64,000 bases of DNA from Candidatus Omnitrophota bacterium (GCA_903820505.1 CAIJHQ010000045.1:79625-143624), one strand, 5' to 3'; positions 1 through 39,318 are shown, counted from the stretch's first letter. Notes: generated from the sequence alone by a model not told the origin. Made by a program: numbers and translations.

Positions 1-1787
1 CTGACACTTTTCGTAAAAATAAATTTGGAATATTCACGGCCTTCGATCGCCTGCCGCAAAAACACGATCAACTCTTCGGCCGTCACCTTGATCCCCTGCT
101 CCCGCAACAAGGCCCCCAGGACTTTCATCTGACCGGAGCTGAATGAAAATCCCTTACCCTTCTTCGGTGCATCCTGCGGCGGGACATCGGAAAAATAAAG
201 CTCATACCCCTCGCGGTAGCTCGGTGAAAGGATGTCGTAGGTCCCCGGCCGGAGATGACCGTATCGCTCGAGAAATGCCTCTTTGGAAAGCTCCCGGCGG
301 TCACTGGCCATCCGCTTGGTCACGGTGTCCAGAGATGCCATAAAATCGTCAAATTCGCCCGAACTGATCAATCCGGTCTTGACCATCGAACGCAGGAACT
401 GAACGGCAATAAAGCCCGCGCGCGCCAAACCGGCGAACGGCAGCGTCCCGTAACGGCAGCAATCCTCGACCAGCCAATAGATCTTCTCGATCGGGTTGAG
501 TCCCGAGCCCAAAACTTTCCGCTGCCGCTCCTTGAGCTCCTCGATCCTGCGCAGATCGTTCGTCATGATCCCGTTGTGCCGGGTCAAAATATTATTGGTC
601 AATTGGACCAACGCATCCTTGATCTTTTGGAGGTCCCGGTCCGAAAAACCATACCCTTTAAGCTTTTTCAGGTCCTCATCAAGCCCCAGGAAAAAACACG
701 AGAAAATAATGTCAAATTCGACCTTATCATGACTGCTGGGAGACGCATGGAGGCGCCCCAGGTAATAATCCGCTAAACGTGCCGCCAGATCTTCGTCGAT
801 ACCCTTCGGAATGAATGAATTAAAACTCACTCGGACATCGATATACGGGTGGCCGATCAAGGTGAGCAGCAGCGGGTAGGATCGCACATTGCGGTAACCA
901 TAGTCATCGCGCTGATAAGACCAGGTTTTATCCGTGATGAGCTCTTTATAGAGCGACAAGGCAAGCGGTCGCGGCTTAACGCCGATCATCTCGGCCGGGT
1001 TCCAATCCGGCATCACCCCCAGATACGTCCTGCTCCCGTGCAGATACGGGTGCGGCGCATTGATGTGATCGACCTTCATGTGGATCTTGTGCAGATAATG
1101 CCCCACCATGAAAGTCTTCGGGAGTTCCCGTCCCCCGCGAACGATGGCCCTGACCTGGAGAATATGGACCTGGCCGGACCCGTCGATCGCAAACTCGATA
1201 TCCAGGCAGTCGTTCTTGCAGACTTCCTCGACCTCCCGGATGGCCTCCATAAGTTTTTCGAATTTCCCGAATTTCGTTTTAAAATTGCGGAACTTGATGA
1301 AGGTCTTAAGTTTATTGGACCTTCCCGAAGTGACACTGTCGGTCCGGGCGGATTCCTCATCGTAATTGATGATGTAGTAAGGCGCCAGAGTATCCAGATC
1401 ACGGGTGAACACCACGCCGCTCATCCGGACATCCCGGACCATGGGCTGAAGGAAAACCTGGTTCCCCCCCGCCGCTTTCACACCGTAGGAACACACCACG
1501 GCATCGATCGAACGCCGCAGGGCGTCCCGGTCCGAGATCAAGACCCCGGCCACCGACATGAACTTGCCGGCATTCGAGCCCGTCAAAAGATCTTCGTCCA
1601 GCGAGGAAGATCGGACAATGAACGCCCCGTTGCTCCCCTTGAAAGAATCCTCAATGCAGCGAAGGCAGGCGTCTTCGCCGGCCGACCATTCGGCGACCGT
1701 AAATCTGCAAATAGGCAGCACGCGCGATTTCTTGAGCAGCGGCCGGATCTGTTCCAGCGTCTCCGCTTTGGTCCCTAATTCAATCAT
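1..1787 (-). CDS. PEP-utilising enzyme family protein (PPDK_N nucleotide-binding domain; PEP synthase/pyruvate,water dikinase-like). The 3' end is cut by the window edge.
   Basis: The minus-strand reading frame is open from the ATG at ~1787 to position 1. It is absent from the ORF track because there is no stop inside the window. The translation contains IVRSSSLDEDLLTGSNAGKFMSVAGV, which matches the VRSSA-x-EDlp-SFAGQ-x-T-x-LNV signature of the PPDK_N ATP-grasp domain. Plus-strand ORFs 255..776 and 849..1778 are antisense to it. Confidence 0.7.
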   Translation of the reverse strand, partial: MIELGTKAETLEQIRPLLKKSRVLPICRFTVAEWSAGEDACLRCIEDSFKGSNGAFIVRSSSLDEDLLTGSNAGKFMSVAGVLISDRDALRRSIDAVVCSYGVKAAGGNQVFLQPMVRDVRMSGVVFTRDLDTLAPYYIINYDEESARTDSVTSGRSNKLKTFIKFRNFKTKFGKFEKLMEAIREVEEVCKNDCLDIEFAIDGSGQVHILQVRAIVRGGRELPKTFMVGHYLHKIHMKVDHINAPHPYLHGSRTYLGVMPDWNPAEMIGVKPRPLALSLYKELITDKTWSYQRDDYGYRNVRSYPLLLTLIGHPYIDVRVSFNSFIPKGIDEDLAARLADYYLGRLHASPSSHDKVEFDIIFSCFFLGLDEDLKKLKGYGFSDRDLQKIKDALVQLTNNILTRHNGIMTNDLRRIEELKERQRKVLGSGLNPIEKIYWLVEDCCRYGTLPFAGLARAGFIAVQFLRSMVKTGLISSGEFDDFMASLDTVTKRMASDRRELSKEAFLERYGHLRPGTYDILSPSYREGYELYFSDVPPQDAPKKGKGFSFSSGQMKVLGALLREQGIKVTAEELIVFLRQAIEGREYSKFIFTKSV

Positions 1788-12735: not shown

Positions 12736-12919
12736 ATCCCCTTCCTTTTCTTAGGGTTACAAACGGGCTCATTCTATCAACTTTCCCTACAACTCACAAC
12801 CTCGACCTGGCATGCCCGGCACCGCTTCACTAACCCGGAACAACGACAACGGGAGGGCTGGAGAACCGAAGCAAGCATTGTCCCGGAAAATCGCCGCAAA
12901 GAAGCGGCGCTCGAGCGAA

Positions 12920-14665: not shown

Positions 14666-14683
14666 AGCCTCCGCAATCCCCTG

Positions 14684-15757: not shown

Positions 15758-15835
15758 GGGACCCTTCGATAGCTTTTGAAGTGCAAGGAATATCGCATTG
15801 CCGCATAGGCTATCAGAAATCGATACAGCCGACAA

Positions 15836-16603: not shown

Positions 16604-16663
16604 CAAGAGACCAGTAGCATTCCTCGGGCCGGTGAAGAAATTGGTCAGAAAACCATCACGGCG

Positions 16664-19071: not shown

Positions 19072-19073
19072 CC

Positions 19074-20995: not shown

Positions 20996-20997
20996 TG

Positions 20998-21975
20998 TTA
21001 TTTCACCGTGTACTTGTCTTTTTTGAGCGGCCGCCACCATGCCGGGTTCTCTTGATACCAGCGGATCGTCGCCTCCAGGCCCTTTTGAAAGCTCCAACGC
21101 GGTTTGAACCCCAGCTTCCGCAATTTATTAAAATTAAGGGCGTAGCGCAGATCATGCCCGAGGCGGTCCGGGACATAGCGGATCATCTCCTTGCCCTTTT
21201 TGAAACGTCTGAGAATGGAATGCGTCAGTTCCAAATTACTCATCTCGTTGTGAGCGCCGACATTATAGATCTCCCCCGTCCTGCCTTTTTCAAGGACCAG
21301 CAGAACGGCGCGGCAAGCATCCTCCACAAAGATCCAGTCCCGGCGATTCCTGCCGTTCCCGTAAAGCGGAACGGTCTGACCGGCCAACAGGTTGGTGACG
21401 AAAAGCGGGATGACCTTTTCGGGAAATTGGTACGGCCCGAAATTGTTCGTACAGCGGACGATCATGGCCGGATGTTTGAACGTTTCCTGGAACGAACGCA
21501 CCAGAAGATCGGCGGCTGCCTTGGAGGCCGCGTACGGGCTGTTCGGCAAAAGCCGCGCCCGCTCGTCCGCGAACCCTTTTGCGACCGATCCATAGACCTC
21601 ATCCGTGGACATATGGACGAACCGTTTGATCCCGCAGGCAAGCGAGGATTCCAGCAGGGACGCCGTGCCCAAAATGTTGGTACGGAGAAACTCGTCCGCG
21701 CTCTCGATCGAACGATCGACATGCGTTTCCGCTGCAAAGTGGGCCACCGCTGCGGCCCGCTTCATCAGGGCATGAACAAGTTTTTTGTCTTCAATGGCCC
21801 CGCGAACGAACTCATAACGGGACGAATTCGCATAGTCTCTTGTGTTAGCAAGATTCCCGGAATAGCTCAGCTTGTCCAGGTTCATCACGCCCCAGCCGGA
21901 ACGGTTTTTCAGGAAATAACGGATGAAATTCGAACCGATGAACCCGCAACCTCCGGTGACCAGCAAGCGCTTCAT
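20998..21975 (-). CDS. rmlB: dTDP-glucose 4,6-dehydratase.
   Basis: Begins MKRLLVTGGCGFIGSNFIRY and contains YAASKAAADLLVRS (YxxxK) and TDEVYG. The internal ATG at 21975 overlaps the rmlA stop (ATGA). Confidence 0.9.
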   Translation of the reverse strand: MKRLLVTGGCGFIGSNFIRYFLKNRSGWGVMNLDKLSYSGNLANTRDYANSSRYEFVRGAIEDKKLVHALMKRAAAVAHFAAETHVDRSIESADEFLRTNILGTASLLESSLACGIKRFVHMSTDEVYGSVAKGFADERARLLPNSPYAASKAAADLLVRSFQETFKHPAMIVRCTNNFGPYQFPEKVIPLFVTNLLAGQTVPLYGNGRNRRDWIFVEDACRAVLLVLEKGRTGEIYNVGAHNEMSNLELTHSILRRFKKGKEMIRYVPDRLGHDLRYALNFNKLRKLGFKPRWSFQKGLEATIRWYQENPAWWRPLKKDKYTVK

Positions 21976-22703
21976 GATCCGCTTCCGCCTGCGTGCCTGG
22001 CCACCAGATTGCCGGCTCGATGAAGGGATTCGAAAGTCCCGGCATCGGTCCAAAACCCTTTAAGAAAATCGAATTCCAGAACGCCCCGCTTGAGATACCA
22101 ATTGTTCACGTCCGTGATCTCGAGCTCCCCGCGGCGGGATGGCTTCAAGGTCCGGATAAAATTAAAAACTTCCGCATCATAGAGGTAGATCCCGACCACA
22201 GCGTAGGGGCTGTCCGGTTTTTTGGGTTTCTCGGTGATCCTGACGATCTTATCGCCGCGCAGGGCCGCGACACCGAAGCGCTCCGGATCCGGGACTTTCT
22301 TCAAAAGCAGACGCGCTCCTTCGGCCTGCCTCTCGAAATGACGCACCTGGGGCGAAATATCTTCCTGAATGATATTGTCGCCGAGGATCACGACCATTTT
22401 CTCGCCGTTCACGAAATGTTCCGCGAGGCTCAGGGCGTGAGCGATGCCCCCCTCGCCTTCCTGGTACGTGTAATTAATGTGCTTCAGGCCGAACTGCTTA
22501 CCGTTCCCGAGCAATTTCAGGAAATCCCCGGAAGAATTTCCGCCCGTCACCACCAGAATATCCCGGATCCCGGCCTTCACCAGGGTCTCGATCGGATAAT
22601 AGATCATAGGCTTGTTGTAAACCGGCAAGAGATGCTTGTTCGTAACTTTGGTCAGCGGAAAAAGCCGGCTGCCAAGACCTCCGGCGAGAATGACACCCTT
22701 CAT
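21972..22703 (-). CDS. rmlA: Glucose-1-phosphate thymidylyltransferase-like sugar nucleotidyltransferase (short form).
   Basis: Begins MKGVILAGGLGSRLFPLT (G-x-G-T-R-L motif) and contains ILGDNI. 243 aa. Its position upstream of rmlB and rmlD supports the call. Confidence 0.75.
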   Translation of the reverse strand: MKGVILAGGLGSRLFPLTKVTNKHLLPVYNKPMIYYPIETLVKAGIRDILVVTGGNSSGDFLKLLGNGKQFGLKHINYTYQEGEGGIAHALSLAEHFVNGEKMVVILGDNIIQEDISPQVRHFERQAEGARLLLKKVPDPERFGVAALRGDKIVRITEKPKKPDSPYAVVGIYLYDAEVFNFIRTLKPSRRGELEITDVNNWYLKRGVLEFDFLKGFWTDAGTFESLHRAGNLVARHAGGSGS

Positions 22704-22758: not shown

Positions 22759-24054
22759 TCAAGCCGGCCGGCCGACACTGACGTAACGGAAACCGTTCGC
22801 TTTCATTTCAGTCGGCTGGAACATATTACGGCCGTCAAAAAAGAAGTTGGACCTCATGAGACGGCGCAAACGCTTCCAATCCAGGTTCAGAAACTCTTTC
22901 CATTCCGTAAGGACCGCGACCGCATGGGCCCCTTTGGCCGCCTGATAAGGATCATCCGTAAAGGTAACCTCCCTGAAAAGCGCCCGGCACTTCGCCGTTG
23001 CCTGGCAGTCATAAGCCTGGATCCGCGCGCCTTCCTTTTGAAGCATCTGAACGATCGGGATCGACGGCGCCGAACGCATGTCGTCGGTGTCCGGCTTGAA
23101 GACCAGCCCCAGGATCCCGAGCGTCTTTCCCTTGAGGTTCCGCATTTCGCTCAGGATCTTTCGGACAAAATATTCGCGCTGCGTGTCATTGACCCGAAGG
23201 ACATCGGCCAGGATATCGAACCGGACACCCAATTGTTCGGAAATATGCAGGAAAGCGCTCAGGTCCTTGGGAAAGCACGAACCGCCGAACCCGATCCCCG
23301 CCTTGAGGAACTGCGGGCCGATCCGGGGGTCCAATCCCATCCCCAAAGTGACTTTCTCGACATCCGCCCCAACGGCGTCGCAGACACGCGATAACGCGTT
23401 CGCAAAAGATATCTTGGTCGAGAGAAAGGAATTCGACGCGTGCTTGATCAGCTCCGCGCTTTTGATGTCCGTCGCGATGATGGGCGCCTTCAGAGAACCG
23501 TAAAGTTTCCGCAGAAGTTTCTCCGCGCGCGCGCTTGAGACGCCGATCACGATCCGGTCAGGCTGAAGGAAATCGTGGATCGCGGAACCTTCTCTCAGAA
23601 ACTCCGGATTGGACGCCACATCGAAGTGGACGCCGCTCCGGACGTTGCGCTTGATGGTGCGGCGGACCCATTCACCGGTCTCCACCGGCACCGTGCTTTT
23701 TTCCACTACCAAGCAGTATTTGCGCAGATGCGTGGCGATCTGTTTGGCGACCTTTTCCACGAACCTCAGATCCGCCCCGCCGTTGGCCCTCGAAGGCGTG
23801 TGCACGCAAATGAACAGGACTTCACAACGATTGACGATCCGCGTAATGTCATGGGTGAAAGAAAGTCTTTTGGCCGCGACGTTCTCCAGGACCATTTCCA
23901 TAAGCCCCGGTTCGTAGAACGGGACCTTACCGTTCTTGAGGGTGCGGACCTTTTCGACGTCCTGATCCACGCAGGTCACGATATGCCCCAGATGGGCTAG
24001 ACAAGCACCCGTCACGAGACCCACATAGCCCGAACCGATTATACCGATCTTCAC
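22759..24054 (-). CDS. ugd: UDP-glucose 6-dehydrogenase.
   Basis: Begins IGIIGSGYVGLVTGACLA (Rossmann). Catalytic Cys motif GFGGSCFPKD. 431 aa. GTG start. Confidence 0.9.
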   Translation of the reverse strand: MKIGIIGSGYVGLVTGACLAHLGHIVTCVDQDVEKVRTLKNGKVPFYEPGLMEMVLENVAAKRLSFTHDITRIVNRCEVLFICVHTPSRANGGADLRFVEKVAKQIATHLRKYCLVVEKSTVPVETGEWVRRTIKRNVRSGVHFDVASNPEFLREGSAIHDFLQPDRIVIGVSSARAEKLLRKLYGSLKAPIIATDIKSAELIKHASNSFLSTKISFANALSRVCDAVGADVEKVTLGMGLDPRIGPQFLKAGIGFGGSCFPKDLSAFLHISEQLGVRFDILADVLRVNDTQREYFVRKILSEMRNLKGKTLGILGLVFKPDTDDMRSAPSIPIVQMLQKEGARIQAYDCQATAKCRALFREVTFTDDPYQAAKGAHAVAVLTEWKEFLNLDWKRLRRLMRSNFFFDGRNMFQPTEMKANGFRYVSVGRPA

Positions 24055-24078
24055 GCGAGGGTTTCCATGGGCAAAGGA

Positions 24079-26508
24079 CTATGTTTGCAGCGAGATCAAC
24101 TGGCTTTCCGCCGGGTTCATGAGACCGGTGGCGAATTCATTGGCTCCGGCCACTGTCTCGCCGATCCGCGGTTCCGAGAAGGAAGCCTTGCTGCCGTTTC
24201 GAAGCGCCAGGTCCGGGAACCCTTTCATCCGGAAATTGAAATAAAGCTGATTGTTATTGGAATCGATCAGCGAATTGCGGACGGTGTAACCGAACTCCAA
24301 AATGAAATCGTGCAGGTCCCTGGCCGCGGAGACCTGCCATTCCTGCAAACCATCGCCTCCCGTTTGCCAGCGGATGTAGCCTCCGACTTCCCACAGATGG
24401 TTGATCTGATAACGGGTATCAAAAACGAACTGCTCACTGCCCTCGATCCACTGGGCATCATACCAGTCATAATAATTATGGGTAAACCTCTGTCCGAAAA
24501 GAAAACGTAATTTTCCGCGCCGGATCATGATGTCCTGGTTCGCCACCTTCAGATAGTGATGAGCGAAATCATACTGGAGACGCGCCTGATACTGGAGCCA
24601 CTCGTAAGGCCGCAACGTCAGTTCCCCGCCGACGAACGTGAACCGGCTCCCCGAGATCGTCGGATCCAAAGGTTGCCCTTCATACTGCACGTAGGTATTG
24701 AGGCTTACGATATCGACCCGCTTCGTCCGTCCGCCGACCATGCGCTTGGTCTGAAGCCGGTTCTCCAGGCCCAGGGTGATGTTCTGGGTATCATCCAGCG
24801 CGTCCGCCGTATCGAAACGCGTCAGCCGGTCCATAGCAACGGTCGAGTAGGCCCCTTCGTACCGAACGCTCGGCTCGACAATATGCCGGAGCTGGTTGAC
24901 TTCAATCCCTAGTTTGTCGAATGAGACGTCATGCGTTTTATAAAAGTGCGTCCGGAGGTCCGCGCCGTATTCGAAAATATTGCGGTAAGTCGCGGAATTG
25001 GAATGCGCCTGATGGCTGTACTCGGTGCCGCGATAGCCGGCGAAGGGCGTCAGCTTGATCTCTTTCCACTTGAGAGGCAAATACCACCGGCTGTAGGCAT
25101 CCGTGCGGATCGAGTCCTGCTGCTCCGTACTGTGACTGTAAGTTTTATACAAATTATCGAACTGGACGCGGCTTTCGTTATAGACCCAGTCCTTGAGGAA
25201 CGGCTGGTTTTTCCAATCCAGACGCACTTCCGGCAACCGCTCGACGACCGATTCATAACTGTTCATCTTCTTTTCAAGAAAGACCATGGCACCATAACGT
25301 TCCGTATTGTGCGTTCCCGTCACGAATGAAAACGGCTGCATTTCGGCGCGATATTCCCTTTCAAAGAAATCCTGGAGAAAATATTCATCCGCCACGCGAT
25401 GGTAGCGCAGGATCACGTTGGTATTCTCTCCAAAATCCGAGCGGTGGCGCCAGGTGATCCGACCGCGGGTCCTGTCTTCACGTTTTGCGTAGGGATTGTC
25501 CTCATCGGAACCCACGTCCCTGTAACCCGGCGTCGGGGCTTCCTTATCCTGGGTCACATAAAGCTTCACGTTCCCGTGAGCATACTTTCCAAAATTATAA
25601 TACTGGTCCCACCCGCCACCGACACCGCGCTTGGCCCGCCAATCCAAATGGGCCTGGCCCCAAAGATACTTATTGAAAGCGATCCCCTTGGTAAGCTCGA
25701 TATAGCCCCCGAATTGTTTCGAATATCCCGGAGAGACCTGGAACGGAAGTGTCGGCATATCAAGCGGCACGGTAACGTAGGGCCACCAGAACACCGGCTT
25801 CCCGAGCACATAGATCGTCGCGTTGTACATGACCAGTTTCACGTTGGTATAGAGAGTGGCCTTCGTGCAACGAATCTCGTAATGCGGTTTATCATAACTG
25901 CAGGTAGTGACGCGACCCTTCTTGATCTTGTCGACACCTTCGCGAATCTGGTGAATCTCGGCACCCCGCGCGTACCACGTCCCTCCCATATCGCCCGGTT
26001 TCAGCCGCGGGTCCGGAGGCCCTTTTTGCGTCGTCAAAGCGCCGGGAGCGCTGATCGCGCGCGCGTTCGGAAAACTTCCCGTATGGTTCGAAAAATCGTA
26101 ATAAGCCTCTTCACCTTGAAGCCGCGGAGAGTCCCCCTCAAAGATCATGACGTGACCTTTGGCATAAGCCTTTTTGGTATCGGTCTCGACCTCCGCATAG
26201 TCCGCGAGCAATTTGGTCCGCTGGTAGGTGATGACCGCGTTGCCGCGGGCGATCATTTTTCCGGATTCCTTGTTGTACTCCAGGCTGTCGGCAACGGCCT
26301 CTACATTCGCCTGTTTTGCGTCATAGATCGTTTGAATGGGAAAATCACGCTTGGCAGGGGCGGAGGCCGCAGCGCCGGAAGCGGTTTTCTCCTCGGAGGA
26401 TTTGTCAGCAGCGAACACCGAGATCCCGGAAAGTAGAACAAGCGAGAGCAGGCCAACAAGGGGAACGATCACGGCCGCAGAGAATTTTGGATCAACCTTG
26501 CTTTTCAC
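24079..26508 (-). CDS. lptD: LPS-assembly outer-membrane protein LptD (OstA family).
   Basis: Has a signal peptide, an OstA-like N-terminal domain, a TTCSYDKPHYEI segment and a long beta-barrel region rich in aromatics. GTG start overlapping the stop of the upstream diguanylate cyclase (GTGA at 26505-26508). Confidence 0.7.
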   Translation of the reverse strand: MKSKVDPKFSAAVIVPLVGLLSLVLLSGISVFAADKSSEEKTASGAAASAPAKRDFPIQTIYDAKQANVEAVADSLEYNKESGKMIARGNAVITYQRTKLLADYAEVETDTKKAYAKGHVMIFEGDSPRLQGEEAYYDFSNHTGSFPNARAISAPGALTTQKGPPDPRLKPGDMGGTWYARGAEIHQIREGVDKIKKGRVTTCSYDKPHYEIRCTKATLYTNVKLVMYNATIYVLGKPVFWWPYVTVPLDMPTLPFQVSPGYSKQFGGYIELTKGIAFNKYLWGQAHLDWRAKRGVGGGWDQYYNFGKYAHGNVKLYVTQDKEAPTPGYRDVGSDEDNPYAKREDRTRGRITWRHRSDFGENTNVILRYHRVADEYFLQDFFEREYRAEMQPFSFVTGTHNTERYGAMVFLEKKMNSYESVVERLPEVRLDWKNQPFLKDWVYNESRVQFDNLYKTYSHSTEQQDSIRTDAYSRWYLPLKWKEIKLTPFAGYRGTEYSHQAHSNSATYRNIFEYGADLRTHFYKTHDVSFDKLGIEVNQLRHIVEPSVRYEGAYSTVAMDRLTRFDTADALDDTQNITLGLENRLQTKRMVGGRTKRVDIVSLNTYVQYEGQPLDPTISGSRFTFVGGELTLRPYEWLQYQARLQYDFAHHYLKVANQDIMIRRGKLRFLFGQRFTHNYYDWYDAQWIEGSEQFVFDTRYQINHLWEVGGYIRWQTGGDGLQEWQVSAARDLHDFILEFGYTVRNSLIDSNNNQLYFNFRMKGFPDLALRNGSKASFSEPRIGETVAGANEFATGLMNPAESQLISLQT

Positions 26509-27887
26509 GATCTCTTGATATCCTTATAAAGACAAACGCGGTTACGTCCTTCTTCCTTAGCCTTGTACATGGCCTCGTCGGCCATCCGGATCAGCTCCGA
26601 CACGATCGCTTTCGTATCCGCTGTTTCGGGATCGACCACCGACTCACCGTCAAACACCGCGATCCCCTGACTTACTGTGACCTTCGTTTTGTCATTATAG
26701 ACCTGAAAGTCATGTCGCGCGATATTGGAGCGGATACGCTCGGCCACTTCGGCAGCGTTCATCACCCGGGTCTCCGGCATGGCCACCACGAATTCCTCTC
26801 CGCCGTACCTTCCCACGAGATCGACCCGGCGGAGGTTCCTTTTCAGCAAATCCGCAACATCCTTCAGAGTGGCGTCACCCACTAGGTGTCCGAATTCGTC
26901 ATTATATCTTTTGAAAAGATCGATGTCTAACATTAATACGGTCAATGGGAGCTTGAACCGGATACTGCGCTTCAATTCCTCCTCAAGACGCTCCATAAAG
27001 TGATGCCGCACGAAAACCTGGGTCAATTCGTCCACGATCGCAAGCGCCCTGACGGTCTCGTAAAGCTTGATCTTCTTGATAAGGAGGACAAGGTACGCGC
27101 TCAAGACCTCTACGCGCGCAAGATCTTCCTCCTTGATGCCATGGATCGCGAAAACCGAGCTAAGTTCGTCGCCATCCAGGATCGGAAAGTACCAGCTGCT
27201 CCCCTGGCGCACCATCGTTTTGGTGTTCTTCATCGCGACAAAACTTTCCAATTCCAGGAGGGTCAGCTCGCGCTCTTCCTCTTTAACACCTTCCTGCAAC
27301 ATCTCATAGATCTTGATAAGCCCCGCGCCCTTTTCCAGGCCCGGCTTTATGCTCAGAAAGATCTGCATCCGCTGGAACGAAAGTTCGGAACGCAACTTTT
27401 TCAATAAGTAATCGGTCAGGGTCTCGAAGTCCATACATTCGCTGAAGTCGCGGGCGATCTCAAAGAGGTTCATCAGGCTGCTGACCTGAACTTCAAGGTG
27501 CCGCAGACTGTTCAGCCTCGTCTGGTACTTGCTTTGGAGCGACTCCAGCGTTTTCCGCACGTCCTCTTTCTTCGTCTGCGCCAGCGCGAAAAAACGTTTC
27601 AGTTCCGCGAAATAATAACAAAGAGCAAAAAAGAGGAACAGCTGGATGCCCCACAGGACCGACACACGCCAGCGCGGGACCCCAAGAAAAAAATCACCCT
27701 GGAGGGCGACGACCACGATCAATGCGCCCACAAAAAAAAGATAGGCTCTTTCCTTCAGGAAGTAAAAAAGCGGGAAGATCCAGAGCGTGGAGATCAAAAA
27801 ATGGACCAGAGGAAGGTCCCTCGATTGCCAGAAAACGAAAAAGACCAGCGCGCCGAGAACTGCGAGGATCAGGAGGCACTTACGCAT
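26505..27887 (-). CDS. Membrane-anchored diguanylate cyclase (GGDEF).
   Basis: N-terminal ~5 TM helices, then a coiled region, then RYGGEEF (GGDEF active site) with an RxxD I-site (RRVD) five residues upstream. Confidence 0.85.
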   Translation of the reverse strand: MRKCLLILAVLGALVFFVFWQSRDLPLVHFLISTLWIFPLFYFLKERAYLFFVGALIVVVALQGDFFLGVPRWRVSVLWGIQLFLFFALCYYFAELKRFFALAQTKKEDVRKTLESLQSKYQTRLNSLRHLEVQVSSLMNLFEIARDFSECMDFETLTDYLLKKLRSELSFQRMQIFLSIKPGLEKGAGLIKIYEMLQEGVKEEERELTLLELESFVAMKNTKTMVRQGSSWYFPILDGDELSSVFAIHGIKEEDLARVEVLSAYLVLLIKKIKLYETVRALAIVDELTQVFVRHHFMERLEEELKRSIRFKLPLTVLMLDIDLFKRYNDEFGHLVGDATLKDVADLLKRNLRRVDLVGRYGGEEFVVAMPETRVMNAAEVAERIRSNIARHDFQVYNDKTKVTVSQGIAVFDGESVVDPETADTKAIVSELIRMADEAMYKAKEEGRNRVCLYKDIKRS

Positions 27888-29314
27888 ACGCGGTTCCTCC
27901 CCTCACGTTTCGCCTGGTAAAGGGCTTTGTCCGCCTTCTGCACCAGCATTTCCGTGTCCAGAGTGTCTTCGGGAACGCTCGCGACCCCCACCGAAAGGGT
28001 CATTTGGACCTGCTCACGGCGGATGTAGAACAAAGACTTCTCGACCGCTTTTCGGGTCTGCTCCGCGATCCTGACTGCGTCCGCTTTCGATGTTTCGGGA
28101 AGCAGGATCGCGAACTCCTCACCGCCGTAACGCGCCAAAACCGCGTCCTTCAGCGACTTCGTCAGGATCTCTGCCAGCTGGATGAGCATCAGATCGCCGC
28201 CCTGGTGACCGAACCGGTCGTTACATTCCTTGAAATGATCCAGATCGATCATCAGAAGGGACATCTTTTTGTTATTCATGAGCGTCCGCCGATGCTCTTC
28301 CTTGAGGCGCTCGTAGAAATAGCGGCGCACGTAAAGTCCCGTCAGCGCGTCCTTGATCGCAAGTTCTTCCGTTTTCTCATAAAGCATGGCGTTGGAAATA
28401 GCGGAGGACGCCAAGGTCGCGATCGCGTCAAGGAGCCGGAGGTCGTCGTGGCTGAAAACGTTCGGCCGTGTCGCATGAATGGCCAGGGTCCCCGTCACGC
28501 GCCCTTCATGGAAAAGCGGCGCCACGATGAGACTCCGCACGTTCTCTTTTTTTTCCGTTTCACTGAGGACAAAACGGAAATCCTCCTGAGTGTCCATGAC
28601 GATGAGCCGCTTGCGGTTCTTGATACACCAAAAATCAAAAAGATCGCCCTGCTTGACCACCCAGTTCCCCACGGGCCGCATGCGGCGCCGCGCGACGACT
28701 GGAAGCGTTTTTTCTTCCCCGCGCGCGAGCGTGATCTTGGAGTAATCCCCCCGCGGGATAAAATCCATGGCGCGGTCCACGGCCTTCTGCGCCAACTCCC
28801 CCCAGGCGAGGCTGACAGTCAATTCTTCGGCGAGCTTTCGGAGGTTATAGTAAGTGGAGTATTTCTCAAAAAAAGTACTGATGCCCTCCCCTTTCGCCTT
28901 GAACGTCATTTCCAGGTTATTGGTCTCATCCTGGTATTTCTCCTCCTCGATCCCGATCATGCCGATCTGTCCTTCAAAATGCTGCTCCATTTGCGAGAGG
29001 ATCGCCATGAGGGTGCCGTAGACCAGGAAGATCCAGAGAAAAACAGGCAGCTTGGTGATCGAGACCACGAAGAGGATCAACGGGATGAGGAAGGTGAGCG
29101 TCAGAATGTTGACGCCGACCCATTTAAAACGCAACCACGTAGTGAACACGGGAATGCAAAACGCCACCAACACGACCGCGATCCGTTGAAGGTAGGTTTC
29201 CGGATAAAACGCGTGCCTCAACTGAACAAGGTAATGAATGGTGGCATAGACCAGCAGAAGGGCGGCGACCACGCCGACCACGAATGCGATCTGCCGTCGT
29301 GTCAGTGAACCCAT
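27869..29314 (-). CDS. Membrane-anchored GAF-GGDEF diguanylate cyclase.
   Basis: N-terminal TM bundle, a GAF-like middle domain, and the RYGGEEF active site. No RxxD I-site is present. Overlaps the downstream DGC gene by 19 nt. Confidence 0.85.
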   Translation of the reverse strand: MGSLTRRQIAFVVGVVAALLLVYATIHYLVQLRHAFYPETYLQRIAVVLVAFCIPVFTTWLRFKWVGVNILTLTFLIPLILFVVSITKLPVFLWIFLVYGTLMAILSQMEQHFEGQIGMIGIEEEKYQDETNNLEMTFKAKGEGISTFFEKYSTYYNLRKLAEELTVSLAWGELAQKAVDRAMDFIPRGDYSKITLARGEEKTLPVVARRRMRPVGNWVVKQGDLFDFWCIKNRKRLIVMDTQEDFRFVLSETEKKENVRSLIVAPLFHEGRVTGTLAIHATRPNVFSHDDLRLLDAIATLASSAISNAMLYEKTEELAIKDALTGLYVRRYFYERLKEEHRRTLMNNKKMSLLMIDLDHFKECNDRFGHQGGDLMLIQLAEILTKSLKDAVLARYGGEEFAILLPETSKADAVRIAEQTRKAVEKSLFYIRREQVQMTLSVGVASVPEDTLDTEMLVQKADKALYQAKREGRNRVCVSAS

Positions 29315-29331
29315 AACGAGGCCGGCACCAC

Positions 29332-30438
29332 TTACGAAACCGCGATGCCCGTTTGAGGATCGAAGAAAAGCGCCTTGCTCATGTCGAACACTACCTGAAG
29401 ATCCTGGTTCATAGCCGCCGTATCCTGGTTGGAAACGCGCACGACAAAATTATTAGTCCCGGAAGTGAGATAAAGATAGATCTCCGAGCCCATCGGCTCC
29501 ACCACATCGACCGTGGCCGTAATAGTGAACTCCGGGCGTGCGTCCTGCGCGAAAATTTTGTCGTAAATATCTTCGGGACGTATACCCATCGTTACTGTCT
29601 GTCCCTTATATTGAGCGACCCGCGAATAAAAATGCGGGAGGATACGGAGTTTGAAATTGCGCTCCACAAAAAAATAATCCCCGTCTTCGGCAAGGATCGT
29701 CCCTTTAAGGAAATTCATCGCCGGTGAACCTATGAAACCGGCAACGAACTTGTTCTGCGGCCGCTCATAAAGGTTCACGGGGTCCGCGACCTGCTGGACC
29801 ACCCCCTTATGCATGACCACGATACGGTCCCCCAGGGTCAAGGCCTCGACCTGGTCGTGCGTCACGTAGATCATGGTCGATTGGAGGCGGTTGTGGAGCT
29901 TCTGGAGCTCCATGCGCATTTGAACGCGCAATTTGGCGTCAAGATTGCTCAGAGGTTCGTCAAAAAGAAATACTTTGGGTTTACGGACGATCGCGCGGCC
30001 GACCGCGACACGCTGCCGCTCCCCGCCCGACAATTCCTTCGGGCGCCGTTTGAGCATCTCATGGGTCAATCCCAGGATATCCGCGGCCTCATGCACGCGC
30101 CGCTCGATCTCCTTGTGGGGATAACGCCGCAGTTTCAATCCGAAGGCGAGGTTCTCATAGACCGTCATATGCGGATAAAGAGCGTAATTCTGGAACACCA
30201 TCGCGATATCACGGTTTTTGGCGGGAACATCATTGACAAGAACGTCCTCGATATAGATCTCCCCCTCGGAGATACCCTCGAGACCGGCGATCATACGCAA
30301 CGTGGTGGATTTACCGCAACCCGACGGGCCGACCAGCACCATGAATTCGCGGTCCTGGATCTCAAGGCTGACATTGTTAACGGCGCGAATACCCTCCTTG
30401 AAGGTCTTCGAAAGGTTCCGCAGCGAAACTTTGGCCAC
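29332..30438 (-). CDS. ABC transporter ATP-binding protein, MalK/UgpC/MsmX type with a C-terminal TOBE domain.
   Basis: Walker A GPSGCGKST, signature LSGGERQRV, Walker B LFDEPLSNLD, plus a ~120 aa C-terminal TOBE-like region. No permease or binding protein is adjacent. Confidence 0.85.
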   Translation of the reverse strand: MAKVSLRNLSKTFKEGIRAVNNVSLEIQDREFMVLVGPSGCGKSTTLRMIAGLEGISEGEIYIEDVLVNDVPAKNRDIAMVFQNYALYPHMTVYENLAFGLKLRRYPHKEIERRVHEAADILGLTHEMLKRRPKELSGGERQRVAVGRAIVRKPKVFLFDEPLSNLDAKLRVQMRMELQKLHNRLQSTMIYVTHDQVEALTLGDRIVVMHKGVVQQVADPVNLYERPQNKFVAGFIGSPAMNFLKGTILAEDGDYFFVERNFKLRILPHFYSRVAQYKGQTVTMGIRPEDIYDKIFAQDARPEFTITATVDVVEPMGSEIYLYLTSGTNNFVVRVSNQDTAAMNQDLQVVFDMSKALFFDPQTGIAVS

Positions 30439-30534
30439 TCAATTTCTCCTTGGCTGAGGACCGCAATGATCCTCGATAACGAAATTAACGGCTTATCAGC
30501 AGTGCCCTGACCGCCCTCCGGTAAAGGATCGTGA

Positions 30535-31371
30535 TCAGGAAAGGTATTCCAGCAAAAGCCCGAGCTTTTGCTTCAGTTCGCTCCGGGCGATCACCATATC
30601 AACGAGCCCGTGATCGAGCAAAAATTCCGAGGTTTGAAAATCCTTCGGAAGTTTCTGGCGGATCGTCTGTTCGATCACGCGGGGGCCCGCAAAACCCAGG
30701 AGGGCCCGCGGTTCGGCGATGATCAGGTCCCCCAGCGACGCGAAACTGGCCATCACGCCGCCCATGGTAGGATTAGTCAGCACGGAAATAAAGGACTTTC
30801 TTTCCTTTTGATAGCGATTGAGCGCGAGCGAGGTTTTGGCCATCTGCATCAAGCTTAGCGCGCCTTCGTACATCCGCGCTCCGCCTCCGGAACCGGATAC
30901 GACGATGAGAGACAGTTTATGTTCCAGGGCGTGTTCGATCAGCCGCGTGATCTTTTCTCCCACCACCGAACCCATAGAACCCATGATGAAACGGGAATCC
31001 GTTACGCCCAAAGCGCAGCTCTTGCCGTGAATCTTCGCCTCCCCGGTCACACACGCTTCCTTGAGCCCCGTTTTTTTCTGGTCCTGCTTGATCTTGTCCG
31101 TGTAAGCCTTAACGGCCGTGAATTTGAGAGGATCTTCCGAATGGAGGTTTGGATCTATTTCTTTGAAGGAATTTTCGTCGGCGAGATGGCGGATGCGCTC
31201 CCAAGCTCCCATGATAAAGTGGTACGAACACTTCGCGCAAACCAGCAAATTCTCTCTGAGGGTTTTGTTGAAAATGACCGTCTGACAGCTCGGGCACTTT
31301 GTCCAGAGACCGGCCGGAATGCTTTTCTTCCTCAGTCCCTTGGTTACAAGAAGTGCCGGCGCGTGCGTCAT
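30535..31371 (-). CDS. accD: Acetyl-CoA carboxylase carboxyltransferase subunit beta.
   Basis: Zn-ribbon CPSCQ...CAKC at the N-terminus followed by a carboxyltransferase domain. The start was placed at the internal ATG (MTHAPALL...). The ORF track begins at a TTG at 31512, which I take to be leader sequence. Confidence 0.9.
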   Translation of the reverse strand: MTHAPALLVTKGLRKKSIPAGLWTKCPSCQTVIFNKTLRENLLVCAKCSYHFIMGAWERIRHLADENSFKEIDPNLHSEDPLKFTAVKAYTDKIKQDQKKTGLKEACVTGEAKIHGKSCALGVTDSRFIMGSMGSVVGEKITRLIEHALEHKLSLIVVSGSGGGARMYEGALSLMQMAKTSLALNRYQKERKSFISVLTNPTMGGVMASFASLGDLIIAEPRALLGFAGPRVIEQTIRQKLPKDFQTSEFLLDHGLVDMVIARSELKQKLGLLLEYLS

Positions 31372-31521
31372 ATGGATAGACGTCCTCTCAAAGGTTGCTG
31401 ATAGGGCTCTACGCCCGTCGTACAAAAAAACCACGAGAGAGCGCTGTTCCCATATCCCTTCCCGTGGCAAGGACCCACTTCGCTTGAGCTCCCCAGTAGC
31501 CGGACGAGTCAAGGTGGAACC

Positions 31522-31549
31522 ATTATAAAAAATTAGGAAGCTGTGTCAA
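31522..31549 (-). promoter_or_regulatory. Near-consensus sigma70 promoter, TTGACA-N16-TATAAT, driving accD.
   Basis: On the minus strand, TTGACA (plus ~31544-31549) and TATAAT (plus ~31522-31527) are separated by a 16-nt spacer. The predicted transcript start near 31514 leaves a ~140-nt leader before the accD ATG. Confidence 0.45.
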
Positions 31550-31620
31550 TTTCTTTCTTCCCCGTAAGTCCAGAAATCTGCTGGCTTTACAACTTTTTTT
31601 TTGCGTGATATGTTTGTTTC

Positions 31621-33042
31621 ATGGAACACGGCCTTCGACAATCCCAGACCCAAAAAATGGTTCTCTCCCCCCAGATGCGGGAGTATCTCCGTCTGCTCCA
31701 TCTTCCTATCGCCGAGCTTTGTCAGGCCGTCGAGGAGGCAGTAGAAACGAACCCCCTGCTAGAAGAAGTGTCCCGTCCCGCGGAGGAGACGCCCCCGGAA
31801 CCCGTTGGGGCTGAAACTTCCGACGAAGCGGAGGAAGATCCCGTTCCGGATAATTGGGCCGCCAAAGATCCGCTTGTTTTCACCAAAAACCCTCCGGACC
31901 TCTCGCGCCGCCGTGCCGCGGAGGTTCAAAAGATCAGGGATTTTCAGGAAACCCTGATCACACGGCCGGAAAGCCTTCTGGATTATCTCCAGTGGCAGGT
32001 CCACTTCCTGGAACTCGATGAAAAGCAAAAAGCGATCGCCGAGCAGATCATCGGAAACATCAACCACGACGGCTATCTGACCGCTTCCCCCGAGGAAGTA
32101 GCGACCGCCGCGGCAGCATCACCGGACCAGGTCCTGGAGATCCTTCAAAAGATCCAACAGCTGGATCCTCCCGGGATCGGCGCACGGAACTTGCGCGAGG
32201 CCCTTCTGATCCAGTTGGAAAGAAAAGGCCCGGAGGCCGCCCTGGCAAAGGAGATCGTCCGTGATCATCTGGACCTCCTGAGCAAAAGGGACCTCAGGAT
32301 GCTCGGCAAGATCTTCAACGCAAGCGAGCCGGATATCAAGAAAGCGGCGGAACAGATCTCCCGGCTGGAGCCCAAGCCGGGCCGCAGCTTTTATGTGGAG
32401 GAAACCCTCGCGATCACTCCCGACGCCACGGTCGCGATCAAGGACGGCACCGAGAACGACCTTGAGATCGAGGTCCATAATGAGATGATCCCCGAACTCC
32501 GCATCAACCCGGAGTACCGCGGAATGATCCGCGATAAAGACATCGACCCAAAAACCAAAGAGTTCCTCTCGACCCGTCTGACGAACGGCCTGGAATTCCT
32601 GAAAGCCCTGGAGCTCCGGAAATCGACCCTGCGGGCGATCACCGAAGAACTCGTCCGCGCCCAGCCTCTTTTCTTCACACGCGGGTTCGCGCACCTTCGC
32701 CCGCTGCGTCTTAAAGATATCGCGGAACGGCTGAACCTTCATGAATCCACGATCAGCCGCGCGATCCACGGAAAGTATCTCAAGACCCCGCAAGGAACAA
32801 TTCCCTATAAAAGTTTTTTTTCGCAAAAGGTGGAAACGGCCGACGGCGAGGGCGAATCACAAAAAAGCATCACGGAGCGGATCCGGAACCTGATCGAAAA
32901 AGAGGACCCGAAAAAACCTTCAAGCGATCAGGCTCTTGTCAGAATGCTCGAGGCGGAGGGGATCAGGATCGCCCGCCGCACGGTCGCAAAGTACCGGGAG
33001 CTTCTAAAGATCCTACCCACTCACTTGCGACGCCGACGTTAA
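31621..33042 (+). CDS. rpoN: RNA polymerase sigma-54 factor.
   Basis: N-terminal Gln/Leu-rich region (LRQSQTQKMVLSPQMREYLRLL). The C-terminal RpoN box is ARRTVAKYRE. 473 aa. Confidence 0.9.
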   Translation: MEHGLRQSQTQKMVLSPQMREYLRLLHLPIAELCQAVEEAVETNPLLEEVSRPAEETPPEPVGAETSDEAEEDPVPDNWAAKDPLVFTKNPPDLSRRRAAEVQKIRDFQETLITRPESLLDYLQWQVHFLELDEKQKAIAEQIIGNINHDGYLTASPEEVATAAAASPDQVLEILQKIQQLDPPGIGARNLREALLIQLERKGPEAALAKEIVRDHLDLLSKRDLRMLGKIFNASEPDIKKAAEQISRLEPKPGRSFYVEETLAITPDATVAIKDGTENDLEIEVHNEMIPELRINPEYRGMIRDKDIDPKTKEFLSTRLTNGLEFLKALELRKSTLRAITEELVRAQPLFFTRGFAHLRPLRLKDIAERLNLHESTISRAIHGKYLKTPQGTIPYKSFFSQKVETADGEGESQKSITERIRNLIEKEDPKKPSSDQALVRMLEAEGIRIARRTVAKYRELLKILPTHLRRRR

Positions 33043-33091: not shown

Positions 33092-33164
<73 letters not shown>

Positions 33165-33211: not shown

Positions 33212-34642
33212 CTAAGACTTAAGGTAAGAATGGATCGCCTGCGCCACCTGCCGCCCCTGGCTGATCGCCCACACGACTAGAGAGGCCCCGCGCGCCGTAT
33301 CCCCCGCCGCGAAAACACCCGGAACCGAGCTCATGCCGTTCGCGTCCGTGGCGACATTGCCGCGCGCGTCATACTGCACGCCAAGGTCACCCAGGAATTT
33401 TGAATGTTCGACGTGAACGAATCCCATCGCCAGGAGCACCAGGTCTGCTTTCAAGGAAAACTCCGTGCCCGGTAATTCGGTCATCACGAACTGCCCGGTC
33501 TTCTGATCGGCCCGCCATTCCACGCGCTGGCAGTGGACTTCACGGACCCCGCCTTCCGGCCCGCCCGTGATCTTCTTCGTCGTGATCGCCCAATCGCGTT
33601 CGCAGCCCTCTTCGTGGGACGTCGAGGAACGAAGGATCTGCGGCCAATAGGGCCATGAGGGATTCCAGGGTTCGTTCCATTCCCTGGGCTTGGGCAGGAT
33701 CTCAAATTGATACACTTTTTTCGCACCCTGCCGGTTCGAAGTCCCGACACAATCCGAACCGGTGTCGCCGCCTCCGATCACCAGAACGGTCTTGTCCTTC
33801 GCTGAAATGATCCCGTCAGCTCCGATCTCGGCGGAAACCGCCTTGTTCGAAAGGGTCAAAAAATCCATCGCGAAATGAACGCCCTGGAGCTCACGGCCCG
33901 ACACCTTAAGATCCCGCGGCGCGCCGGCGCCCATGGTCAGCAAAATCACATCAAACTGCTTCCTGAGATCCGCGGCGGACACCGTTTCCCCGGCATCGAC
34001 TTTCGTTTCGAACCGGACGCCTTCGGCTTTCATTTGTTCGATGCGGCGGTCCAGCACCTTTTTCTCGAGTTTAAAATCCGGAATGCCGTAGCGGAGAATG
34101 CCTCCTATCTTGGGCGCCTTTTCAAAAAGAGTGACTTGATGCCCCAGACGGCGCAGTTGTTGCGCTGCGGCTAGTCCCGCCGGTCCCGAACCAATGATCG
34201 CGATCTTTTTGCCAGTTTCTCTGACCGGCTTTTGGGGCGTGACCCATCCTTCCGCAAAAGCTTTTTCGATGATCGCCAACTCGATCTGTTCGATGGTCAC
34301 TGGAGCCGCATTGATCGACAATGTGCAGGCCGTCTCGCAAGGGGCCGGACAGATCCGTCCGGTCAATTCGGGGAAATTATTCGTCATGGAAAGACGCTCG
34401 TACGCGTCTTTCCACTGACCGCGGTAGACCGCGTCATTCCACTCGGGGATCAAATTGTAAACGGGACATCCCATAGCGTGACAGAACGGAACGCCGCAAT
34501 CCATGCAGCGCGCGCCCTGCTTGTGGATCTCCTCCGTCAAAAGCGGTCCCGTGATCTCCCGATAGTCTTTGAGACGCTCGGAGACCGGGCGCTTCGGAGC
34601 GAGATCGCGTTGATATTCCAAAAATCCGTTGGATTTTCCCAT
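33212..34642 (-). CDS. gltD: Glutamate synthase (NADPH) small subunit.
   Basis: Two Cys clusters (CMDCGVPFC, CPAPCETAC) and a dinucleotide-binding motif IAIIGSGPAGLAAA. Its start overlaps the gltB stop (TAATG). Confidence 0.9.
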   Translation of the reverse strand: MGKSNGFLEYQRDLAPKRPVSERLKDYREITGPLLTEEIHKQGARCMDCGVPFCHAMGCPVYNLIPEWNDAVYRGQWKDAYERLSMTNNFPELTGRICPAPCETACTLSINAAPVTIEQIELAIIEKAFAEGWVTPQKPVRETGKKIAIIGSGPAGLAAAQQLRRLGHQVTLFEKAPKIGGILRYGIPDFKLEKKVLDRRIEQMKAEGVRFETKVDAGETVSAADLRKQFDVILLTMGAGAPRDLKVSGRELQGVHFAMDFLTLSNKAVSAEIGADGIISAKDKTVLVIGGGDTGSDCVGTSNRQGAKKVYQFEILPKPREWNEPWNPSWPYWPQILRSSTSHEEGCERDWAITTKKITGGPEGGVREVHCQRVEWRADQKTGQFVMTELPGTEFSLKADLVLLAMGFVHVEHSKFLGDLGVQYDARGNVATDANGMSSVPGVFAAGDTARGASLVVWAISQGRQVAQAIHSYLKS

Positions 34643-39168: not shown

Positions 39169-39318
39169 TCTATTTCCTTCATCGCTCGGTGCCGCCTTCA
39201 AACGGAATTCCTCCACTGGAAGTCGCTGCGAGAGTGGAACACCCGAGGCGCTTGGGCAGCAGAATACCCCTCATACTACAAATTTATACATAAAGGGCAA
39301 AGGCAGGCGGTCGGTATT

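Follow-up and report, generated by a model that had tools for sequence, protein, structure and literature searches.

In Escherichia coli, the essential gene lptD belongs to a long, mixed, co-directional operon, lptD(imp)-surA-pdxA-rsmA-apaGH, which is served by more than one promoter. Here we describe the surroundings of lptD in a 64,000-nucleotide (nt) stretch of DNA from a Candidatus Omnitrophota bacterium (GCA_903820505.1 CAIJHQ010000045.1:79625-143624), hereafter called the window, in which two tandem membrane GGDEF proteins (G1 and G2) and a MalK-like ATP-binding cassette (ABC) ATPase are encoded upstream of lptD. The Omnitrophota are uncultivated and often ultra-small, and their envelope biology is essentially unknown. 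The Omnitrophota array is like the E. coli operon in the fold and family of its LptD and in being a long, mixed and co-directional array. It differs in that it has neither surA nor pdxA, in that the GGDEF pair and the MalK-like ATPase stand upstream of lptD while ugd and the rml genes stand downstream, and in that the putative lptD promoter lies within the coding sequence of the upstream cyclase. Our literature search found no paper on a linkage between lptD and GGDEF genes in the Omnitrophota, nor any specific to the lipopolysaccharide (LPS) of this phylum.

The known I-site cyclases PleD, WspR and DgcR and the GAF-GGDEF protein Dcsbis act as homodimers. G1 and G2 are like these proteins in having a GGDEF domain of the GGEEF form with the D-x-D...N-D...G-D residues; G2 shares with them an RxxD five residues upstream, and the GAF domain is joined to the GGDEF domain by a helix, as in Dcsbis (PA2771; 4zmu). 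They differ in a lineage-specific sensor with four transmembrane (TM) helices (the G2 N-terminal sensor) and in forming a constantly overlapping pair of paralogues, which is I-site-asymmetric in the major clade to which the window belongs. The genes downstream of lptD recall a second well-described system, the ugd/ArnA-ArnC-ArnT pathway of lipid A modification: ugd, a UDP-glucuronate decarboxylase-like gene, an ArnC/DPM1-like GT2 gene and an ArnT-like PMT_2/GT-C gene are all present. In contrast to the Arn pathway, neither an ArnB aminotransferase nor ArnD was seen in the Omnitrophota array, and for this reason the sugar is probably not 4-amino-4-deoxy-L-arabinose (L-Ara4N). A precedent for membrane-anchored envelope sensing that feeds an I-site GGDEF cyclase is the Wsp system of Pseudomonas aeruginosa (PMC9170161). 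Wsp is a chemosensory pathway that is unlinked to lptD, whereas G1 and G2 are themselves membrane proteins and are linked to it.

Conservation of the lptD Gene Array

The cluster genes all lie on the minus strand of the window, in the transcription order accD, MalK-like ATPase, G1, G2, lptD, ugd. They are listed here with the genes that adjoin them.

31657-33042, plus strand: rpoN (sigma-54; TIGR02395, 414 bits), divergent from accD; bounds the block on its upstream side in the major clade of the window
30535-31371, minus strand: accD (acetyl-CoA carboxylase carboxyltransferase beta), a 278-amino-acid (aa) gene call; TIGR00515, 389 bits (cut-off 317); opens the conserved array
29332-30438, minus strand: MalK/UgpC/MsmX-type ABC ATPase, 368 aa; GTG start with an AAGGAG Shine-Dalgarno sequence
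27869-29314, minus strand: G1, predicted 4TM-GAF-GGDEF diguanylate cyclase, 481 aa; GGEEF at 28112-28126, without an RxxD I-site (LKDA)
26505-27887, minus strand: G2, predicted 4TM-long helix-GAF-like-GGDEF diguanylate cyclase, 460 aa; RRVD I-site at 26820-26831, GGEEF at 26790-26804
24079-26508, minus strand: lptD, 809 aa; GTG start, signal peptide, N-terminal beta-jellyroll and large beta-barrel
22759-24054, minus strand: ugd (UDP-glucose 6-dehydrogenase), assigned by domains, 24 nt after lptD
16664-22703, minus strand: rmlA, rmlB, rmlD, UDP-glucuronate decarboxylase-like (uxs), ArnC/DPM1-like GT2 and ArnT-like PMT_2 (GT-C) genes, from gene calls and Pfam families, their order kept by tblastn
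16664-18364, minus strand: the PMT_2 gene (Pfam), last gene of the downstream co-directional part

The region was compared with its counterparts around LptD relatives of 28-100% identity, drawn from genomes (8 loci), metagenomes (79 loci) and 4 annotated contigs; the window's proteins were mapped onto the related loci, and synteny was counted over 81 distinct loci. Both cyclases lie upstream of lptD in all 55 loci with at least 3.2 kb of upstream sequence, and the order accD-malK-G1-G2 is found in 47 of the 47 loci with at least 5.8 kb. Downstream, ugd is the next gene after lptD in 65 of 66 loci, the exception being a split alignment. A search with a profile of the most divergent LptDs gave 423 hits and revealed a second large Omnitrophota clade, four long contigs of which have the order accD-malK-G1-G2-(ROK)-(tal)-lptD-ugd-rmlC-rmlA-rmlB-rmlD, with tal encoding a transaldolase. 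Gene order is retained while LptD identity drops to 28%. The order accD-malK-G1-G2-(ROK/tal)-lptD-ugd-rml is far from chance and is invariant in every relative sampled. The array looks to be an ancient core of the Omnitrophota, phylum-wide as far as sampled, and no accident of one genome. The linkage of lptD with two tandem membrane GGDEF proteins and a MalK-like ATPase, which had been noticed in a preliminary description of the window, is real and conserved across the Omnitrophota.

In the window's major clade, the array extends into uxs and the ArnC/ArnT-like genes. As had also been noted, lptD is on the same strand as the sugar-nucleotide and glycosylation block; the ArnC/ArnT-like genes are included in one co-directional array with it. 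The upstream flanks vary by lineage, with gltBD, NUDIX, PfkB, tetratricopeptide repeat (TPR) or asnB/B12-binding genes next to the block, and in the second (L090-like) clade an asparagine synthase gene and a gene for a B12-binding protein stand upstream in place of rpoN. The core thus stays in place between flanks that rearrange, and within the sampled part of the phylum the association is a conserved feature. In the window itself, gltB-gltD (about 6 kb; 33212-39858, minus strand) lies between rpoN and a NUDIX hydrolase gene. The same pair precedes rpoN in L002 as well, and in other relatives, with L004, L005, L009 and L011 compared, a NUDIX gene is found near rpoN without gltBD. This insertion or deletion of gltBD indicates that the flanks of the conserved block are plastic.

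The Paired Cyclases

Pfam recognizes a GGDEF domain in G2 (144 bits) and a GAF domain with a GGDEF domain in G1 (157 bits). The two proteins are 35% identical over 224 aa, from the end of the GAF domain through the GGDEF domain, and both carry at the N terminus four TM helices whose loops are very short, with almost none in the periplasm. In the AlphaFold2 (AF2) model of G2 (pLDDT 83.8), TM4 is prolonged by a helix some 50 residues long, which leads into an alpha/beta domain not recognized by Pfam; for this domain Foldseek finds the GAF/PHY-GGDEF proteins 5llw (a phytochrome-diguanylate cyclase) and 4zmu (GAF-GGDEF). This single-chain model has a long N-terminal helix like that of dimeric cyclases. 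In other loci, the tblastn alignments of G1 and G2 span nearly the full length of the proteins. G1 and G2 are full-length tandem paralogues, each composed of four TM helices, a signalling helix, a GAF or GAF-like domain and a GGDEF domain. The only proteins with homologues of the G2 N-terminal sensor are ones for which the source, when it is named, is almost always given as Omnitrophota or Omnitrophica.

Both proteins carry GG[DE]EF and the metal- and GTP-binding residues of the GGDEF family (D-x-D, N-D, G-D, and K/R in YxAKxxGRN); the invariant GGDEF columns are D321, D323, K326, N329, D330, D338, R360, G362-F366, K444 and R448. GGEEF is present in all major-clade orthologues of both cyclases. 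G1 and G2 retain the residues needed for catalysis, and cyclase activity is predicted for both.

The two cyclases had been described as differing in their I-site, and this distinction is confirmed: RRVD stands five residues before GGEEF in G2, and LKDA occupies the same position in G1. R-x-[VI]-D is found in G2 of every orthologue examined, including those of the deepest clade, and all ~55 G1 orthologues of the window's major clade lack RxxD and keep GGEEF. The asymmetry, with R-x-[VI]-D always in G2 and never in G1, extends over ~58 loci of this clade. In the second Omnitrophota clade (L092-L095, L090), G1 often has GGEEI rather than GGEEF, and G2 is shorter (378-443 aa). The genes for G1 and G2 overlap in 56 of 58 loci, mostly by 19 or 16 nt. 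Because both the I-site asymmetry and the gene overlap are constant, we suggest that G1 and G2 work as a pair, probably as a heteromer, in which one subunit possibly gives product inhibition.

LptD and the MalK-like ATPase

The product of lptD matches PF04453 over residues 347-706 (44.7 bits against a gathering cut-off of 22.4), while the score of the enterobacterial equivalog of NCBIfam falls far under its cut-off, as expected for a distant phylum. When a profile built with its relatives is compared with the sequences of the PDB, the LptD entries 7omm, 5iv9 and 8h1r are found (E 1e-14 to 1e-12), the alignment with 7omm covering residues 91-253 in its N-terminal region. The AF2 model (pLDDT 79) consists of a signal helix, an N-terminal beta-sandwich (strands 70-220) and a large barrel, and its top 37 Foldseek matches in the PDB are all LptD, with 5iv9 at E 6.5e-32 over 796 columns (template-modelling score 0.53-0.56). 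The orthologues carry PF03968, the OstA/LptA-like N-terminal jellyroll. By its LptD relatives, too, the window belongs to the Candidatus Omnitrophota. Some Omnitrophota homologues are 900-990 aa long and have N-terminal TPR repeats fused to LptD (P0245, P0246, P0281, P0283, P0292, P0302; L095:3135-5918). None of lptE, lptA, lptB, lptC, lptF and lptG was recognized within the 64-kb window.

The preliminary description had allowed that the GTG start of lptD could be an error. The start is upheld by the signal peptide that follows directly after it, read from the sequence as MKSKVDPKF, a hydrophobic stretch and VFA/AD, and by the starts of the orthologues, an overlapping in-frame GTG or ATG for lptD being seen in 28 distinct related loci. 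A downstream start was considered and rejected: the sole alternative GTG, in frame at codon 13, would drop the charged n-region of the signal peptide, and the orthologues retain the start at the overlapping position.

The ATPase is composed of ABC_tran (PF00005), OB_MalK (PF17912) and TOBE_2 (PF08402). In NCBIfam it passes the cut-off of the UgpC subfamily (483.7 against 432) and does not reach that of the MalK equivalog (407 against 568). The motifs GPSGCGKST, LSGGERQR, FLFDEPLS and VTHD can be read from its sequence, and the PDB entries 7x0q, 1g29, 2d62 and 6yir are related to it over the full length (E <= 1e-119). Its relatives include MalK of Thermococcus litoralis, the multiple-sugar ATPase of Pyrococcus horikoshii and MsmX of Bacillus subtilis (6yir, E 5e-119). 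In 47 of 47 loci its neighbours are accD and G1, so that the locus is not a classical operon with a cognate permease and binding protein. Pfam found no ABC sugar permease or binding protein in 37 open reading frames (ORFs) of the window, about 10 smaller ORFs being left out, and none is present among the gene calls at ~14-36 kb. The earlier view of the protein as an orphan MalK/UgpC-type ATPase with a TOBE domain holds as far as tested in 64 kb.

Standalone multitask sugar ATPases are well known, namely MsmX in B. subtilis, MsiK in Streptomyces, and MsmK (PMC7658222). Like the cluster ATPase, these have a MalK-type nucleotide-binding domain with a C-terminal OB/TOBE domain and are encoded away from permeases; the cluster ATPase differs from them in its position, which is fixed between accD and the cyclase pair phylum-wide. 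Binding-protein-dependent transporters are encoded elsewhere in Omnitrophota genomes (10.1101/2023.11.21.568195). The orphan MalK-type protein is probably an ordinary shared ATPase of the MsmX/MsiK type, and no anomaly. One could instead suppose that it is not a transporter subunit at all and docks on G1/G2, as on a MalF/MalG-like pair of paralogues, to form an ATP-driven or transport-sensing signalling complex. The malK-G1-G2 adjacency, invariant and tight (47 of 47 loci; 17-nt gap), and the absence of a permease from the window ORFs scanned would suit such a complex, but we consider it very improbable. The sequences of G1 and G2 and the G2 model, with four TM helices and very short loops, leave no room for an EAA coupling helix, and these minimal loops rule out G1/G2 as ABC permease-like partners of a MalK. 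The ATPase is also highly conserved over its full length as a canonical CUT1 sugar-importer type, and both the standalone multitask ATPases (PMC7658222) and the transporters that exist elsewhere in the Omnitrophota (10.1101/2023.11.21.568195) argue for an ordinary role.

Probable Promoters, One of Them Embedded in G2

Both strands of the whole 64-kb window were scanned for TTGACA-16..18-TATAAT. Only two sites match at 11 or more of the 12 positions, against 0.4 +/- 0.6 in shuffled sequence, and both lie in the cluster and point along it. They are given here together with a hairpin in the accD leader.

31522-31549, minus strand: accD promoter, sigma-70-type TTGACA-16-TATAAT, 12/12 match, in the divergent rpoN/accD intergenic region
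31424-31468, minus strand: terminator-like hairpin, GCCACGGGA...UCUCUCGUGG with a U7 run, present in the minimum free energy fold of the ~145-nt accD leader (31372-31516)
26892-26939, minus strand: embedded element, a conserved nucleotide block in codons 317-332 of G2 (VLMLDIDxFKRYNDxF), putative internal promoter for (tal-)lptD-ugd

The accD promoter was compared in 40 distinct loci, where it matches at 12/12 in 28, at 11/12 in 11 and at 8/12 in one (39 of 40 at 11/12 or better). This is strong comparative evidence for a real promoter at which the array would start.

The embedded element contains TAGACA (26924-26929) and TATAAT (26901-26906) separated by 17 nt, an 11/12 match to the sigma-70 consensus, and the hexamers are at the same position in most related loci. 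The block encodes L-D-I-D-x-F-K-x-Y-N, which is the metal- and guanine-binding motif of the GGDEF domain. In the block, TTA is found in 88% of sequences against 13% gene-wide and AGA in 95% against 9%; the rare codon GTA (11%) is fixed, as are TAT, AAT, GAC and TTC, while the flanking codons vary freely. Among 40 distinct genes, the rate at which the same codon is used for the same amino acid is 0.877 in the block and 0.452 in the rest of G2. The excess codon homozygosity of the block is 0.363, against a maximum of 0.146 in the other 12-codon windows of G2, G1, malK, lptD, ugd and accD. Because the codons of the block are fixed and partly rare, with free codons on either side, the protein motif does not force the hexamers. 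Nucleotide drift (CTC GAT...TAC AAC) beneath retained or closely similar amino acids is seen in lineages such as L006, L007, L063 and the L090-like clade. The second clade is without the embedded element and has promoter-like sites in the lptD-ugd spacer instead (L092:10167, L093:10121).

From this pattern, the embedded element probably serves as an internal promoter that lies about 0.4 kb before lptD (or tal-lptD), and lptD probably has a promoter of its own and does not depend only on transcription through the cyclases. The conserved 48-nt block might instead be another kind of nucleic-acid element, such as a binding site for a regulator, a signal at the RNA level or a rare-codon pause. That the spacer positions (TTC AAA AGA) are fixed too, and that several of the fixed codons are rare (TTA 13%, AGA 9%, GTA 11%), is in keeping with such an element. 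A rare-codon pause would not need identical codons, however, and Rfam gives no match at E <= 1 in the stretch. The block is an 11/12 match with the optimal 17-nt spacing and one of two such sites in 64 kb, the other being a clearly conserved intergenic promoter with the same consensus, and we therefore consider a role other than that of a promoter unlikely.

In an RNAalifold consensus of 13 loci from the window's clade and L074, the hairpin of the accD leader has a stem of 9 bp and a loop that varies, and a compensatory change is present in L015. At the same place in the leader, L054, L072, L078 and L087 have different sequences of the hairpin-plus-U-run kind. The hairpin may be an attenuator or an undescribed riboswitch. 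At the gathering score, Rfam detects two tRNAs in the whole window and no riboswitch for cyclic di-GMP (c-di-GMP) or any other ligand, and at E <= 1 over 23900-31700 it has no match, the leader hairpin included. The scan for intrinsic terminators yielded 16 where 19.1 were expected, and no intergenic gap contained one; the leader hairpin, whose loop is longer than the limit of the scan, was missed by it. Sigma-54 promoters were also considered, rpoN being adjacent, and were rejected: a search for TGGCAC-N5-TTGCW that allowed 2 mismatches found 15 sites where 21.6 were expected, none of them well placed.

The Junction between G2 and lptD

The G1 start follows the MalK stop after a gap of 17 nt. 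The last 19 nt of G1 also belong to G2 (27869-27887), the ATG of which has a GGAGG Shine-Dalgarno sequence 8 nt ahead of it, and G2 and lptD share the 4-nt GTGA at 26505-26508 (...AAG AGA TCG TGA with GTG AAA AGC...). Both overlaps are as first described, the one between the two GGDEF genes at 19 nt and the other between the GTG start of lptD and the stop of a GGDEF gene. Between accD and the PMT_2 gene, 6 of the 11 co-directional junctions overlap, the gene-call junction overlaps in the array being -1, -19, -4, -4, -43, -4 and -1, and gltB and gltD overlap too. Overlapping stop and start codons are routine in this array and by themselves not unusual. Two ORFs on the opposite, plus strand, one of 528 aa antisense to G1 (27722-29308) and one of 345 aa antisense to lptD (25399-26436), are arginine-rich and of low complexity; they were taken as frame shadows and are most likely no genes.

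The 4-nt overlap of G2 and lptD is found in 28 distinct loci (17 GTGA, 11 ATGA), and 13 further loci have small spacers or other overlaps at this junction. In another arrangement, seen in 28 distinct loci, tal lies between G2 and lptD, and it is joined by a ROK kinase gene in the deepest lineages. The inserted transaldolase is of the TalC/Fsa type and 216-228 aa long (e.g. L006:3181-3840, L007:9123-9782, L093:7271-7921, L094:6319-7910), and no transaldolase gene is present anywhere in the 64-kb window. Since tal is present in deeper branches, the direct G2/lptD overlap of the window is most simply read as a secondary, lineage-specific compaction.

The translational coupling of lptD to the cyclase finds no support in the form in which it had been proposed. 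The genes are on the same strand and overlap, and the terminator scan found nothing between them, but the overlap is lineage-specific and tal is inserted at this point in 28 loci. An internal promoter before lptD, which the preliminary description had named as evidence against coupling, has partial support in the sequence, from the near-consensus sigma-70 site inside G2. Because there is sequence evidence for such a promoter, strict dependence of lptD on transcription and translation of the cyclases is unlikely.

Possible Roles of the Array

Taking the lines of evidence jointly, we lean towards reading the locus as an ancient envelope-glycolipid array with paired cyclases, a promoter before accD, an embedded promoter for lptD, and a shared ATPase. 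The G1/G2 pair would serve as membrane-embedded sensors that make c-di-GMP. Transcription of the array would begin at the conserved sigma-70 promoter before accD and then meet, in the window's clade, the terminator-like hairpin of the leader; in this clade a second start could occur at the near-consensus promoter in the LDIDxFKxYN active-site codons of G2. The gene lptD, co-oriented and probably co-transcribed with the cyclases, would have its own promoter in addition, and the GTGA overlap would be a lineage-specific compaction of a junction that holds tal in deeper lineages. The MalK-like protein would energize sugar ABC importers encoded elsewhere. The whole array could then be a supply line for envelope glycolipids, with the cyclase pair as its resident signalling module: accD would contribute malonyl-CoA and acyl precursors, the MalK-like ATPase energy for sugar import, ROK and tal sugar phosphates, ugd, rml and uxs nucleotide sugars, lptD the export of LPS, and the ArnC/ArnT-like genes periplasmic glycosylation. 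This supply-line reading with its c-di-GMP module is suggestive, as guilt by association, and a functional link between c-di-GMP and LPS, with the coordinated control that had been proposed earlier, is plausible from the neighbourhood. PilZ and GGDEF, both elements of c-di-GMP signalling, are reported from other places in Omnitrophota genomes (10.1101/2023.11.21.568195).

Several points weigh against this interpretation. The I-site asymmetry is not universal, G1 of the deepest clade sometimes having RxxD (REGD) and GGEEI, and the G1/G2 heteromer is proposed from gene features. Both promoters and the read-through between them are likewise predicted from sequence; the spacer of the embedded element is conserved too, which a promoter alone does not require; and the gene order persists in the L006/L007-like and L090-like clades, which lack the element, so that the embedded promoter is not the whole reason for the linkage. 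No c-di-GMP receptor domain was detected among the cluster proteins scanned, nothing ties c-di-GMP mechanistically to LptD, and depletion of lptD in P. aeruginosa raises Wsp-dependent c-di-GMP only slightly (PMC9170161). The loci were found by means of LptD peptide patterns and word matches, with very divergent Omnitrophota and other phyla outside the sample.

Among the other explanations, one is that no functional relation exists: the order would have been frozen by genome compaction and regulatory entanglement, with promoters and ribosome-binding sites inside the preceding gene, and the cyclases and lptD would be mere neighbours. The promoter-like element within G2, the start/stop overlaps through much of the array and its functionally mixed content (accD, malK, tal, ROK) agree with such freezing. 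Yet the order is kept in clades without the embedded promoter, the flanks of the block do rearrange between lineages, and insertions are tolerated at the G2/lptD junction while the genes never separate; on balance we think a purely structural linkage rather unlikely. On another reading, translation of lptD in a single operon would be obligatorily coupled to that of the cyclases, which would tie LPS export to c-di-GMP synthesis both stoichiometrically and by regulation. The invariant neighbourhood, the GTGA of the window, the 4-nt overlaps in 28 distinct loci and a terminator scan that finds nothing between the genes point this way. The intervening tal, sometimes with ROK, in 28 loci, the small spacers or other junction arrangements in 13 more and the conserved promoter-like element within G2 do not, overlaps being in any case the default in this array; and LptD resides in the outer membrane, out of reach of cytoplasmic c-di-GMP. 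Obligatory co-translation thus seems quite unlikely. The glycolipid reading also has a stronger form, in which G1/G2 is an obligate heteromeric membrane cyclase that senses the load of lipid or LPS precursors and sets the output of LPS and envelope glycans through c-di-GMP, the linkage being held by the embedded lptD promoter. We regard this form as speculative and improbable as a whole.

The components of the array are new members of known families; what is new is the phylum-wide arrangement and the promoter-like element in catalytic codons. An order that stays invariant while LptD identity drops to 28% is the mark of a core module of this phylum, and it offers a concrete, testable hypothesis: the supply and export of LPS would be linked to c-di-GMP made by a paired membrane sensor. 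Should the heteromer and its sensing of LPS load prove true, the array would connect a second messenger with outer-membrane biogenesis across the phylum; were the linkage merely structural, it would still be a good case of regulatory entanglement that freezes gene order. The embedded element shows cleanly how a promoter-like signal can overlie catalytic-site codons in nature. The sister lineages that keep the protein motif and lose the DNA motif serve as an internal control, and the element could be useful for studies of dual coding and for the annotation of transcription units in candidate phyla.

Other Features of the Window

Beyond the array, an extended glycosylation region (1878-19071, minus strand) is built of repeated pairs of a small GT2 (ArnC/DPM1-like) gene and a PMT_2/GT-C (ArnT-like) gene: 18364-19071 with 16664-18364, 11872-12735 with 12920-14665, and 3790-4515 with 4512-5993 and 1878-3659. 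It also contains genes for a GDSL-like protein and a methyltransferase and two large ORFs without a Pfam match (6937-9315, 10231-11862). A set of Mla-like lipid transport genes (56869-60244, minus strand) encodes an MlaE permease with a fused N-terminal STAS domain (379 aa), an ABC ATPase, a protein with an MlaD domain and a small lipoprotein. Going only by the sizes and N-terminal sequences of its ORFs, 42028-47671 (minus strand) is an apparent polyphosphate cluster, with ppk1 (690 aa), a ppx/GppA-like gene (522 aa) and a PPK2-like gene (285 aa). An apparent ROK kinase (351 aa) in this cluster shares 31% identity with the ROK kinase whose gene is inserted close to lptD in L088/L089.

Two tRNA genes are present:

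33092-33164, minus strand: tRNA-Thr(CGT), between rpoN and gltD
60368-60441, minus strand: tRNA-Gly(CCC), downstream of the Mla-like genes

At 51198-54613 (minus strand), the gene for a PAS-SpoIIE (PP2C) phosphatase adjoins that of a 727-aa MscS-family channel, and the two could be an envelope or osmotic signalling pair.

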